Shown here piece by piece: positions 21,020 to 40,090 of a stretch of 64,000 nucleotides of DNA. Within the stretch, counting starts at the first letter, position 1. The number at the start of each line of letters is the position of its first letter. The stretch is taken from the IMG/VR virus record IMGVR_UViG_3300002835_000013. The stretch is one strand, 5' to 3'. The position numbers and the translations under genes were made by a program. The DNA comes from a virus. The notes beneath the pieces are model-generated. The model made no database searches, was not told where the DNA came from, and was given only the letters and a program-made list of their open reading frames with translations.

Positions 21020-21244
21020 TTATAAAGGAAGTTGTGAGGTATTAGATTTCTTGAGAAAGTGGAGTTCTTCGGCTTCTAGTTTGATTTTGGATTTGAGAAC
21101 ACCCGAGACTAACTTTGCTGCGGTCTCTATCTCGAATCCTGTCTGTTCACAATACATAACGACGGCATCGATATAAGGAATGTCTTTCATATAGACCAGT
21201 TCCTCAATCTCTAAACTAAACTTTTGTATGTCTTCGGGGGTCAT
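21020..21244 (-). CDS. gp33: Late transcription coactivator gp33
   Basis: F..EIE......YIDAV..YCE.....E..AKL.S..LK.KI..EA..L.FL. Confidence 0.92.
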   Translation of the reverse strand: MTPEDIQKFSLEIEELVYMKDIPYIDAVVMYCEQTGFEIETAAKLVSGVLKSKIKLEAEELHFLKKSNTSQLPL

Positions 21245-21267
21245 TTGTTCCTCTGGTTCATAATATA

Positions 21268-21581
21268 AAAGGTGATTTTTCTGTTTCGAGGAAAACCACC
21301 AAACCCAATGAACTTACGCTGCTAGAGCGAAGTCAAATGGTACATTGTCGTTTGCTGCACCTGCAATTTGCCTTTGGTCTCCTTACGACCTTACTGTATC
21401 CCGTCGAACCTGTTCGCCCCCATCAAAGATACACTGTTGGACCCTCTGTCTTGTTCCAACTTTTCTCATAAAGAGTTGCGGGTTCCTATCTTTTCAGTCT
21501 AGGCAGTGTATCTATGATGGAGGCGGTGGGAATCGCACCCACGTCCAAGAAACCTATATTTCGTCTCTCAACGACCTCGGC
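21268..21581 (-). ncRNA. ssrA: tmRNA, circularly permuted two-piece form
   Basis: T-arm GTGGG-TGCGATT-CCCAC plus CGCCTCCA (ends 21518) precedes 5' GGGGGCG (starts 21421) with the Ala G3.U pair; tag frame ...ANDNVPFDFALAA-stop (21355-21314); terminal hairpin plus T run. Confidence 0.93.
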
Positions 21582-21591
21582 AATTCTATTT

Positions 21592-21754
21592 ATCGTCTCC
21601 ATCAAAGATACACTCTTAGCGTCAAAGTGATGGACTTGAACCATCATACCTTTCTTTGATATTCAGATATACCGAACGTTACGATATACCCTTAGTCGGC
21701 CAACTCGCTATGTTAGATAATTAGTCTAACGAGTGTATCCATGATGAAGACGAT
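21592..21754 (-). ncRNA. Unknown structured RNA closed by a ~24-bp helix, containing a T-arm-like hairpin
   Basis: Arms 21592-21615 and 21731-21754 are complementary; TGATGG-TTCAAGT-CCATCA hairpin; own TATAAATA promoter at 21763-21770; no credible ORF. Confidence 0.7.
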
Positions 21755-36562: not shown

Positions 36563-36892
36563 TTATTCTTTCACTCCTTCAGGAAGCATCCAAATGTTTA
36601 CACCGTGAACCATAAAGTCCTTGGCATCTTTAAGTCCATACCCAGTAGCATGACGCACAGCCTTAATGGCATTGATGAACATGCGATATTCTTTTGAAGC
36701 ATGAGTACGAATCTTTAGATCATACTTAATACCACGCAGAAGTCCCATAAGGACAGCGTTCTGTAAGTCCTCGCCCATTCCTTCTTTCAGTGAACGCCAC
36801 ATCTTCATGCCCTGCTCGTCTCCGTAATACTTTGTGATATCACGGAGAAGGTTGCGAGCACTAACAATAAGACTTGTAGGAAGCTCAGCCAT
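36563..36892 (-). CDS. Protein with a ribosomal bL12 C-terminal-domain-like segment and a W-x-x-P tail
   Basis: INAIKAVRHATGYGLKDAKDF resembles bL12 CTD. Confidence 0.6.
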   Translation of the reverse strand: MAELPTSLIVSARNLLRDITKYYGDEQGMKMWRSLKEGMGEDLQNAVLMGLLRGIKYDLKIRTHASKEYRMFINAIKAVRHATGYGLKDAKDFMVHGVNIWMLPEGVKE

Positions 36893-37748: not shown

Positions 37749-37898
37749 TCATTCAGGCACCATCCAAATGTTTACACCGTGAACCATAAAGGTCTTAGTG
37801 TAGATTACGACACCGACATTACCATAAAGTTCGGCAACAGTCGGCAGAAGTTCGGTGACAGGAACATAAACAGTTTTGTCCAGATTTGCTTCTGCCAT
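37749..37898 (-). CDS. W-x-x-P family microprotein, 49 aa
   Basis: MAEANLDK...FMVHGVNIWMVPE; AGGTGA RBS; stop overlaps the next ATG. Confidence 0.6.
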   Translation of the reverse strand: MAEANLDKTVYVPVTELLPTVAELYGNVGVVIYTKTFMVHGVNIWMVPE

Positions 37899-38129
37899 TT
37901 CTCACCTATTGATTTGCCGAGTCGTCAAAAGCATTGACGTTCGGAACTGTATATTCATTGCCAGTCGCAAAGATGACCGTGTCGCCTTCAACAACTTCCG
38001 CAACCGCACGAAGGTCCCAAAAGCGATGCCAGAAGTCCGGCTTGCCAAAGACCTTGAGGGCGTTATATACACGCTCGTCCTTGAAACCGACAAAGTGGAC
38101 AGCCATCGTTTCCTCATTTCTCATTCTAT

Positions 38130-38204
38130 GGACATATTATAGCACAAGGAATGGAAGATGCAAGCGAAATCGTATGTAAACGGGTGCGACATTCTGTCGC
38201 ACCC
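38130..38204 (-). promoter_or_regulatory. Early promoter cassette 3
   Basis: Palindrome 38185-38201 extended by GGG/CCC; promoter nearly identical to cassette 1. Confidence 0.85.
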
Positions 38205-38209
38205 TTAGT

Positions 38210-38335
38210 CTATTGATTTTGTAGCAAGATTGTATTAGGCACATACCAAATGCTGGATGCGGTATATGGGCAGGTACTATAATCATAACTCACCCGAATT
38301 CCAGCACCATAGAGACTGACATAAAACCGAGCCAT
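38210..38335 (-). CDS. W-x-x-P family microprotein, 41 aa
   Basis: MARFYVSLYG...SSIWYVPNTILLQNQ; GGAG RBS. Confidence 0.6.
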   Translation of the reverse strand: MARFYVSLYGAGIRVSYDYSTCPYTASSIWYVPNTILLQNQ

Positions 38336-38440
38336 TAGTTTACTCCATCAAGAGCCATGATAAGAACGATACCGAAGATTAGACCGACAGTAACAACACC
38401 AAGGGCCATAATCTGAACCATTTTACTTTCGTCTAACATT

Positions 38441-38557
38441 TTAGTCCTCCAGAGTGCCAGGAACAACCCATATTGAACATGAAGTAAACATATTACCACC
38501 AAAGCTAGCATATGCTACACAATGACCATATGAAGGAATATACCTATGAATAACCAT
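38441..38557 (-). CDS. W-x-x-P family microprotein, 38 aa
   Basis: MVIHRYIPSYGH...SIWVVPGTLED; GGAGG RBS. Confidence 0.7.
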   Translation of the reverse strand: MVIHRYIPSYGHCVAYASFGGNMFTSCSIWVVPGTLED

Positions 38558-38558
38558 A

Positions 38559-38684
38559 TCATGCCTCCAAAGTTCCGGGAACAACCCAATAAGATTGATG
38601 ATCACTATTAGCAGCATATGCCACAACATGACCAAACACACCGAGATTGGCGTATATCATCAGATGATTAACATATACTATCAT
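38559..38684 (-). CDS. W-x-x-P family microprotein, 41 aa
   Basis: MIVYVNHL...SYWVVPGTLEA; GGAGG RBS. Confidence 0.7.
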   Translation of the reverse strand: MIVYVNHLMIYANLGVFGHVVAYAANSDHQSYWVVPGTLEA

Positions 38685-38685
38685 A

Positions 38686-38814
38686 TCAATCCTCCAGAGT
38701 GCCGGGAACAATCCAATAAGAGATATCAGCATCGGGATAGATTTCATCCTGAAGCCAGGTGATAGCAGAATAACCACGGTGACCATCGTGATAGATAGAA
38801 TAGAAAACTGTCAT
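38686..38814 (-). CDS. W-x-x-P family microprotein, 42 aa
   Basis: MTVFYSIYHDGH...SYWIVPGTLED; GGAGGT RBS. Confidence 0.7.
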   Translation of the reverse strand: MTVFYSIYHDGHRGYSAITWLQDEIYPDADISYWIVPGTLED

Positions 38815-38895
38815 TTCAGACCTCCGTCAGAATAGCGACAAGCGCAAGAGATATAGGCGCACCGAATAGAACGAAAAAGAGAATAACGTCGGACA

Positions 38896-39018
38896 CTATC
38901 GGTTCTCCGCATTAGAGATAAGATCGGGATATAACCACACACAAACACCGTGCCAAATCAACTGGTGCTCGGCCCAGTTATTGATCTGGGCAATGATGTG
39001 AACTGGGATATTATTCAT
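38896..39018 (-). CDS. W-x-x-P family microprotein, 40 aa
   Basis: MNNIPVH...HGVCVWLYPDLISNAENR; GGAGG RBS. Confidence 0.55.
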   Translation of the reverse strand: MNNIPVHIIAQINNWAEHQLIWHGVCVWLYPDLISNAENR

Positions 39019-39245
39019 TATGCAGCCTCCTGACCGAGTTTATCCGTATCATACACAATCGACTCGCCGAGAAAGTCTTCGTTGGCACGGGCACCAACTA
39101 CACGGCGAGAGATAATATAACGACCATACGCTTCACCCTCAAAATCGACCAGAGCCGATTGGGCATCTGCCAGCGAATAATAAACGCCGAGCATATAATC
39201 ACCCTCATAATCGATGCAACCGAAGAGAACGAAAACTTCCATCAC
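39018..39245 (-). CDS. Small early hypothetical protein
   Basis: DYEG...LGVY.S...A; AGGAG RBS. Confidence 0.65.
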   Translation of the reverse strand: MMEVFVLFGCIDYEGDYMLGVYYSLADAQSALVDFEGEAYGRYIISRRVVGARANEDFLGESIVYDTDKLGQEAA

Positions 39246-39412
39246 TTATCTCCTACTTTGATATTTTTACCAACCGTGAAACCACGCTTCGGACGTTTAG
39301 ACGATTTCACCTTGGTGATTTTACCACCGTTTTCAGCCCAACGAAGAAGGGCGAGACGCAAAACCACATCTTTGCCGTCTTGGTTTTTGATATGAAAGCG
39401 AGTATTTGACAT
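39242..39412 (-). CDS. 56-aa basic early protein (not in the ORF track)
   Basis: MSNTRFHIK...ENGGKITKV...; first gene after cassette 4. Confidence 0.6.
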   Translation of the reverse strand: MSNTRFHIKNQDGKDVVLRLALLRWAENGGKITKVKSSKRPKRGFTVGKNIKVGDK

Positions 39413-39431: not shown

Positions 39432-39527
39432 ATGGGAATATATTAGCACATCGGAACGGAAGGGTCAACCAAAATCGTTTGTCAACGACTGCGACAGGTT
39501 GTCGCACATTGATCGCAGTCGTTGACA
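39432..39527 (-). promoter_or_regulatory. Early promoter cassette 4 with an extended inverted repeat
   Basis: Palindrome 39490-39506 overlapping TGTCAACGACTGCGA...TCGCAGTCGTTGACA; TTGACC...TAATAT. Confidence 0.85.
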
Positions 39528-39847: not shown

Positions 39848-40090
39848 TCAGCTATTGCCAAGCTCAAGGCTCCGGCGCATCTTCCAGACCAGCTTTCTTT
39901 CTAGCTGATAAACCCGTGCCTGCGACAGGCCAAGCTCCTCGGCGATGGCATCGATGGTCTGGTTCTGATAGAAACGACGGACGGCGATGAATTGTAAACG
40001 TGGGCTAAGGCATTCGATAGCCCGTTTACAGACAACCTTACGGTCAAGGTCATGCATATTGATAAGTTGGAGAAAAGTTTCGTTTACCAT
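39848..40090 (-). CDS. Stand-alone sigma70 region-4 HTH protein
   Basis: AIECLSPR.Q.I...RFY...T...IAEELGLSQARV.QLE. Confidence 0.8.
   Translation of the reverse strand: MVNETFLQLINMHDLDRKVVCKRAIECLSPRLQFIAVRRFYQNQTIDAIAEELGLSQARVYQLERKLVWKMRRSLELGNS

Follow-up and report, generated by a model that had tools for sequence, protein, structure and literature searches.

A family of acidic, aromatic-rich microproteins encoded by tandem, translationally coupled genes in T4-like phages

Introduction

A stretch of 64,000 nt from a virus (IMG/VR virus record IMGVR_UViG_3300002835_000013; hereafter the window, meaning the whole stretch that we analyzed) carries, between positions 37,749 and 39,018, a run of very small open reading frames (ORFs), several of which end in a Trp-x-x-Pro motif. 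Are these ORFs genes, do they belong to one family, and what might their products do? An initial annotation of this DNA had grouped six of them into one array family and read them as a diversified peptide library. Here we report that three of the six, genes E, F and G, are paralogues in a stand-alone and, by the searches described below, previously undescribed family of acidic, aromatic-rich microproteins. Both ends of these proteins are maintained by selection on the amino acid sequence.

The window is DNA of a large, uncultured T4-like lake phage, with genes for a gp32-like single-stranded DNA-binding protein, a gp6-like baseplate wedge protein, primase, RNase H, ligase, ribonucleotide reductase, RtcB and a transfer-messenger RNA (tmRNA). 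No megablast match to the 2-kb region around the small genes was found among the INPHARED cultured phages. T4-type genomes contain hyperplastic regions in which ORFan small genes lie between PeSL promoter/stem-loop cassettes (Arbiol et al. 2010, PMC2839356; Comeau et al. 2014, PMC4122927). The setting of the genes described here is of this known kind, and coupled translation links the microgenes; the protein family itself is new and is described in neither PMC2839356 nor PMC4122927.

Three small genes form one protein family

We searched the 1799 six-frame segments of the window with a family profile made from independent metagenomic members, leaving out sequences of the type of gene I, a neighboring ORF. 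The profile recovered gene E with an E-value of 9e-24, gene F with 1.7e-11 and gene G with 5.9e-11, and the score of gene G was reached by 0 of 2000 shuffles. Membership of the six ORFs in a single family was not upheld: only E, F and G are confirmed, gene I is a possible member, and genes C and K score at chance, their scores being reached by 479 and 609 of 2000 shuffles, respectively (hhalign probability for K, 3.5%). The family genes in the window are as follows.

Gene E, 38686..38814, minus strand: 42 aa, MTVFYS...DISYWIVPGTLED; commonest family type; AlphaFold2 pLDDT 87
Gene F, 38559..38684, minus strand: 41 aa, family member; starts at the ATG at 38684 and not where the 75-aa ORF begins
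Gene G, 38441..38557, minus strand: 38 aa, family member; true start is the ATG at 38557

The remark in the initial annotation that some of these ORFs are mis-started was borne out, as public calls give 75 aa for F and 61 aa for G.

Family members were then collected from sequence databases. A profile search of 5.8 billion proteins returned 86 clusters at 90% identity, and a full HMMER pass over 1.84 billion representatives returned 52 representatives at 50% identity. All family matches range in length from 31 to 82 aa, the longest being mis-started calls that run through the preceding gene out of its frame, and no fused, longer or multidomain forms occurred among the HMMER matches of all lengths. 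The collected set of 111 proteins (34-55 aa) has a median length of 43 aa, 18% aromatic residues and a mean net charge of -4.6. The family signature consists of M-[TV]-V-F-Y, a type-specific middle of ~20-30 residues, D-I-S-[YW]-W-x-V-P-G-T-[LI] and an acidic tail of 2-12 residues. This tail comprises three residues in 61% of members, and L-E-D is terminal in 45%.

Within IMG/VR, the family is present in at least 46 viral contigs. A search of 185,579 prokaryote genomes gave a single match, locus L096 (JALRAA010000411.1, 1478 nt), a phage-like contig binned with a Burkholderiaceae metagenome-assembled genome; this binning may be a weak hint of a Burkholderiaceae host or an artefact. As judged from these matches, the family is found only in phages. 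Metagenomes of lakes and fresh water from 2016 to 2024 contain DNA of the window again, and those family members traced so far likewise derive from lake or other freshwater samples (runs of 2016-2024). No RNA run was listed as containing this DNA, a negative with no bearing on expression. Pfam and PHROGs hold no family for any of the microproteins, a profile search of PDB sequences gave 0 matches at E<=10, and the E protein has no tblastn match at E<=1 in the INPHARED cultured phages. A literature search for the family tail motif returned no match.

Selection acts on the protein

The shared block at the 3' ends of the genes could be kept for its amino acids or as a DNA or RNA signal. Comparing codons among 44 distinct DNA copies of the block, we found that Ser, Trp, Val, Pro, Gly and Thr of the motif are invariant in 44/44. 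Ser is nevertheless encoded by TCT, TCC, TCA, TCG and AGC, Gly by four codons (GGA, GGC, GGT and GGG), and Pro, Thr and Val by three codons each. Per column, both the N-terminal V-F-Y and the C-terminal block have a proportion of synonymous differences (pS) of 0.2-1.0 and a proportion of nonsynonymous differences (pN) near 0. The synonymous differences that the initial annotation had pointed out among the three tandem copies are real. Because the amino acids are fixed while synonymous codons vary freely, selection acts on the protein and not on a DNA or RNA signal.

The converse account, in which the block is conserved as a nucleic acid signal (ribosome-binding site [RBS] context, recombination site or palindrome) and the ORFs are incidental, has some basis. 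The GGAGG within the L-E-D codons is a genuine RNA signal, and GTTCCnGGAAC is palindromic when the Gly codon is GGA. Against it, third positions are free where amino acids are fixed, with Gly encoded by GGA, GGC, GGT or GGG and Ser by both AGC and TCN, and, over all loci, 82 of 83 motif matches sit at the end of an ORF, in its frame and on its strand. We regard this account of the ORFs as having practically no chance of being correct. A nucleic acid explanation alone is refuted for S-x-W-x-V-P-G-T but holds in part for the final two or three codons. The palindrome GTTCCnGGAAC was also considered as a DNA site and rejected, as it is broken by the Gly codon variation.

The middle of the protein follows a different pattern. 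Across types pN is about equal to pS, and within orthologous types pN/pS is 0 to 0.53. Since the middle is purified within types, the family is made up of a few old, specialized paralogue types rather than a diversified library, and each genome carries only 1-4 copies. Nor is the N-terminal end the variable one, as had been proposed: M-x-V-F-Y is conserved with pN near 0, so that both terminal strands are kept and the middle varies.

Operon layout and translational coupling

Every gene at 37.5-39.5 kb is on the minus strand. After a promoter cassette, the operon runs A, B, C, D, E, F, G, H, I, with adjacent genes separated by a 1-nt gap or overlapping by 1 nt, and GGAG, GGAGG or AGGAGG lies 5-8 nt 5' of each gene start. 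The eight small ORFs of the initial annotation are all present on this strand with Shine-Dalgarno sites 5-8 nt upstream. Besides E, F and G, the region contains the following features (TM, transmembrane).

First promoter cassette, 39440..39506, minus strand: palindrome TGCGACA-N3-TGTCGCA (39490-39506), then TTGACC-17-TAATAT with TG (39468-39440); heads the A-I operon
Gene A, 39242..39412, minus strand: 56 aa; first gene of the operon; kept in relatives (MSNxRF...YFENGGTI type)
Gene B, 39018..39242, minus strand: 74 aa; DUF7336/phrog_3002-like; kept in relatives
Gene C, 38896..39018, minus strand: 40 aa, ...CVWLYPD...; genuine conserved gene outside the family
Gene D, 38816..38896, minus strand: 26 aa, single-TM microprotein, GTG start
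Gene H, 38335..38439, minus strand: 34 aa, single-TM microprotein
Gene I, 38210..38335, minus strand: 41 aa, MARFYVSLYG...SSIWYVPNTILLQNQ; conserved; possible divergent family member
Second promoter cassette, 38135..38201, minus strand: palindrome/hairpin 38185-38201 after gene I, then TTGCAT-16-TGcTATAAT; heads J-K-L
Gene J, 37906..38106, minus strand: 66 aa; kept in relatives
Gene K, 37749..37898, minus strand: 49 aa, ...GVNIWMVPE; separate conserved microprotein family

Exact TGCGACA-N3-TGTCGCA palindromes occur six times in the window (32799, 34023, 38185, 39490, 39829, 40466) versus 0 expected. The two at 39490 and 38185 each have a sigma70-like promoter just downstream on the minus strand; the -35 element of the second (TTGCAT) lies below the threshold of our promoter scan and was read by eye. 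The array thus lies downstream of a predicted sigma70-like promoter cassette, in agreement with the earlier placement behind early promoters. The hairpin at 38185-38201 is likely the terminator of the A-I operon.

These palindrome and promoter units look like this clade's version of the PeSL promoter/terminator cassettes. The region resembles PeSL regions in lying in a T4-like genome, in having short genes annotated without function between repeated cassettes of a stem-loop and a predicted sigma70-like early promoter, and in differing in gene content between close relatives through recombination at short common sequences. The palindrome here is TGCGACA-N3-TGTCGCA, whereas the RB49 stem pairs a G-run with a C-run. 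Moreover, copy change within the operon uses the conserved 3' block of the genes themselves and not the cassettes, unlike PeSL shuffling.

The initial annotation had noted that the Leu-Glu-Asp codons of one gene double as the RBS of the next. The GGAGG is indeed there: NTG-GAG-GNN spells it, and the residue after Glu is mostly Asp, which fits the RBS because GGAGG requires a G-initial codon at that position. Members with longer tails retain an L-E-D that is suitably spaced from the next ATG, which lies -4 to +2 nt from the family stop in 41/44 copies. As a property of the family, however, the overlap did not hold up, because the next RBS lies in the last 3-5 codons at every operon junction, whether or not a family gene is involved. 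The geometry is that of coupled cistrons in general, in which the Shine-Dalgarno sequence lies in the last codons of the upstream gene: here the GGAGG is in L-E-D, and stop and ATG are 0-2 nt apart or overlap. There is no mechanistic difference from ordinary coupled cistrons, except that a family-wide protein tail and the RBS use the same codons.

Copy number changes at the shared 3' block

The three copies of the shared block in the window are the sites at which copies are gained and lost.

Shared 40-nt 3' block plus junction, three copies, 38437-38476, 38555-38594 and 38682-38721 (within 38437..38721), minus strand: copy-number recombination sites

Among five records searched, three genomes at least 94% complete (164-169 kb) have 1-2 family matches and a 69%-complete record has three, always in one region. 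It is in the array that close relatives (loci numbered with L) differ. The window has E-F-G-H-I; L005 has E-F-H, with neither the second cassette nor I; L061 has E-H-I; in L058, E is followed by an unrelated gene of 40 aa and then H-I; and L069 has a G-like gene, an E-like gene and H. BLAST alignments to relatives switch partner inside the repeated 40-nt block. Contigs from lake metagenomes are fragmented here; among them, a weak joint connects 38439 with 38702, so that F and G are missing, and another joint connects 38105 with 38337, so that I and the cassette are missing.

The proposal that the array is expandable by recombination at the 3' block is therefore well founded: L061 has E alone, L005 has E-F and the window has E-F-G, the breakpoints fall in the 40-nt repeat, and the one weak metagenome joint agrees. 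T4-type recombination needs <50 bp of homology, and PeSL cassettes are shuffling points (PMC2839356, PMC4122927). Given this short homology requirement and the shuffling at PeSL cassettes, the copy change can be explained as ordinary unequal homologous recombination. We also observed that the F orthologue in L005 (5001-5105, compared with 38559-38684 in the window) is 34 aa long and lacks the seven residues VNHLMIY near its N-terminus; in the F type, an in-frame deletion in the first strand is thus tolerated.

The gene order around the array is recognizable in 26 distinct loci as A-like, B-like, TM microprotein, family gene(s), TM microprotein. Two conserved single-TM families lie near family genes in most relatives, a D-like family of 26-27 aa and an H-like family of 33-38 aa ending in ...LIAY(L/F)(D)GG. 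In many relatives a D-like gene immediately precedes an E-type gene, in most an H-like gene lies beside the family genes, and the last codons of both kinds also contain the RBS of the next gene. Both of the single-TM ORFs of ~27 aa in the initial annotation are real genes, with the length corrected for H, which has 34 aa because its N-terminal D-E-x-K-x-V-Q is conserved in relatives. Further single-TM microprotein genes in relatives lie at 4883-4999 in L001, 3892-3999 in L067 and 3916-3999 in L079.

Predicted fold

We modeled the family with AlphaFold2 (AF2), using an 81-sequence alignment with gene E first. The best model, with a pLDDT of 87, has strands at residues 2-7, 13-18 and 30-35 and a less confident tail, from which we predict, with moderate confidence, that the family folds as a three-stranded beta-sheet. 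With its last strand conserved on both faces, such a sheet of 40 residues probably needs a partner or self-association.

Two known folds were considered and rejected. The WW domain (PF00397) has two conserved Trp some 20-22 residues apart, the second followed by Pro at the third residue, in a three-stranded antiparallel meander. It is matched by 0/81 members even at E<=10, the first strand V-F-Y has no conserved Trp, and only the W-x-x-P spacing is common to both. The model is three-stranded, and no WW chain is listed among its best structural matches, a ranking in which small domains do poorly. A GIY-YIG remnant, suggested by the top Foldseek row (1zg2), was dismissed at E 4.6 and probability 0.09. 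The ESM Atlas gave no usable match.

Three small phage proteins are top-ranked or listed as structural neighbors of the model: phi29 p56, a uracil-DNA glycosylase inhibitor (2le2/8ail); T7 Gp2, an RNA polymerase inhibitor (2lmc); and T4 Dmd, an antitoxin (5hy3). Like the family they are small (56-64 aa), acidic and stand-alone; they are also expressed early and bind one host or phage protein, as the family proteins may do. Unlike the family, they contain helices, lack the M-x-V-F-Y / S-Y-W-x-V-P-G-T signature and show no sequence similarity. With Z of only 2.6-3.6, below what would indicate shared ancestry or function, the likeness is one of analogy.

Possible roles of the family

We tentatively favor, with a confidence somewhat short of even, a reading in which E, F, G and possibly I are translated early effectors whose conserved strands and tail dock one partner while the middle sets a second specificity. 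Each protein would fold, or co-fold with a partner, into the three-stranded beta-sheet. A constant surface would be made up of the first strand (M-x-V-F-Y) and the last strand (D-I-S-Y-W-x-V) together with the P-G-T-acidic tail; it would probably serve for self-assembly or for docking to one conserved partner, which could be a host protein or one of the adjacent single-TM microproteins. The second strand and loops, which are type-specific, would set what else is bound or blocked. Translational coupling of the ordinary kind links the genes, each GGAGG lying in the last codons of the gene before, and homologous recombination in the 40-nt block allows copies to be gained or lost. Given the small size, strong acidity and presumed early expression of the proteins, we suggest that the likeliest role is to inhibit or retarget a host factor during takeover.

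Several observations weigh against this reading. The other four AF2 models reach a pLDDT of only 66-72, and an independent AF2 run on the shallow F/G subfamily alignment gave an all-beta model with a pLDDT of 60, an alignment too shallow to confirm the fold. Foldseek found nothing at E<1 in PDB or BFVD, and the best VIA-align (wide) match, phi29 p56 with Z 3.6, is not significant. The adjacency of TM genes may be inherited synteny rather than functional linkage. Finally, no positive selection was detected in the family middle (pN/pS <=0.53), which weakens an arms-race view.

The partner of the constant surface might instead belong to the phage. The family proteins could be subunits of a membrane complex with the D-like and H-like microproteins, the conserved strands and tail binding the phage TM partner rather than a host protein, with superinfection exclusion, lysis timing or interference with a membrane machine as candidate roles. 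A D-like or H-like TM gene lies next to a family gene, or one gene away, in about 20 of the 26 distinct loci, in clades sharing only about 55% identity and with two TM families, and the family is very hydrophobic and aromatic. Yet gene order is conserved across the whole region, so this adjacency may reflect synteny alone; L006, L007, L072 and L078 have family genes without an adjacent TM gene; and the family proteins are strongly acidic, with neither a TM segment nor a signal peptide. We consider such a complex unlikely. We are similarly doubtful of a further reading, in which the family would be a minimal modular binder scaffold: two invariant framework strands and the acidic tail would dock one conserved hub, either a host machine or a TM microprotein of the phage itself, and the type-specific second strand and loops would recognize different targets. 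If this were true, the phage would possess a small, recombination-adjustable set of adaptors, with which several host factors could be recruited or blocked by way of a single hub.

Other explanations place the function in the act of translation or in later modification. As leader or ribosome-arrest peptides, the proteins would pause the ribosome over the next RBS through W-x-V-P-G-T in the exit tunnel and so tune translation. The invariant Trp, Pro and Gly do lie within 9-18 residues of the stop, and the next GGAGG falls in the last codons, with the next ATG -4 to +2 nt from the stop in 41/44 copies. However, this geometry occurs in every gene of the operon, the downstream genes are unrelated to one another, the distance from motif to stop varies from 2 to 12 residues, and AF2 predicts a fold supported by covariation. 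The N-terminal strand is also equally conserved at the protein level, which peptides acting in the tunnel do not need. Arrest peptides of the SecM, TnaC and MifM type conserve the C-terminal tunnel segment alone and keep it at a constant distance to the stall or stop; the family fails on both counts, which makes this explanation quite improbable. We give still less credence to RiPP-like precursor peptides with conserved recognition ends and a variable core, a very remote prospect for which the small size, the tandem arrangement, the conserved ends around a variable middle and the Cys or His in the middle of several types could be cited. The Cys and His residues vary in position, the AF2 model is of a folded domain, and neither the scanned ORFs of the window nor the small-gene neighborhoods of the 26 relatives include a radical SAM enzyme, YcaO, lanthipeptide synthetase, ATP-grasp enzyme or protease/transporter.

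As putative early effectors, the E, F and G proteins are of interest in several respects. Small phage proteins are badly under-annotated, and this family is absent from Pfam, PHROGs, PDB and the cultured phages in the searches made here. The analysis yields a family signature, corrected gene starts, proof of protein-level selection and about 110 members from T4-like phages. The family may be a tractable candidate for a new host-takeover or inhibitor activity, and it provides a tidy natural example of tandem microgenes that gain and lose copies through a common end of roughly 40 nt. Without a function, it would be one more orphan of the kind known in T4-type hyperplastic regions.

Neighboring small genes

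Gene I may be a divergent family member. Against the profile without I-type sequences it scores 7 bits (E=1), a score reached by 19 of 2000 composition-matched shuffles (p about 0.01), and hhalign gives a probability of 30% over 13 C-terminal columns. It has the start M-x-x-F-Y-x-S-L-Y-G in common with E. In two of the three gene C orthologues seen (L001 and L005), Ser occupies the Pro position of the motif.

Gene K belongs to its own conserved family of 48-49 aa. Its last 16 residues are 81% identical to the end of a bL12-like gene (36563-36892), and a 48-nt direct repeat, 90% identical, links 37749-37796 in K to 36575-36622 in this bL12-CTD-like 109-aa gene; the C-terminal peptide FMVHGVNIWM[VL]PE is common to both proteins. 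Distant relatives also keep K-type genes that end in ...IWMVPE, so the end of K may have passed to the bL12-like gene, or the reverse.

The tmRNA of the phage lies at 21223-21607 and carries the tag peptide AANDNVPFDFALAA; a link between this tag and the family was considered and rejected, as the two bear no resemblance. One cassette upstream of the array, at 39848-40090, the window encodes a sigma-70 region 4 protein (PF04545, E 7e-9) that is 80 aa long and stands alone. Another conserved small-gene family, of 49-53 aa and with the pattern MANVKTFNLS...FRGISR.A..RY, is found again in these regions, at 5128-5289 in L001, 4264-4413 in L067 and 546-707 in L096, sometimes as two tandem copies.

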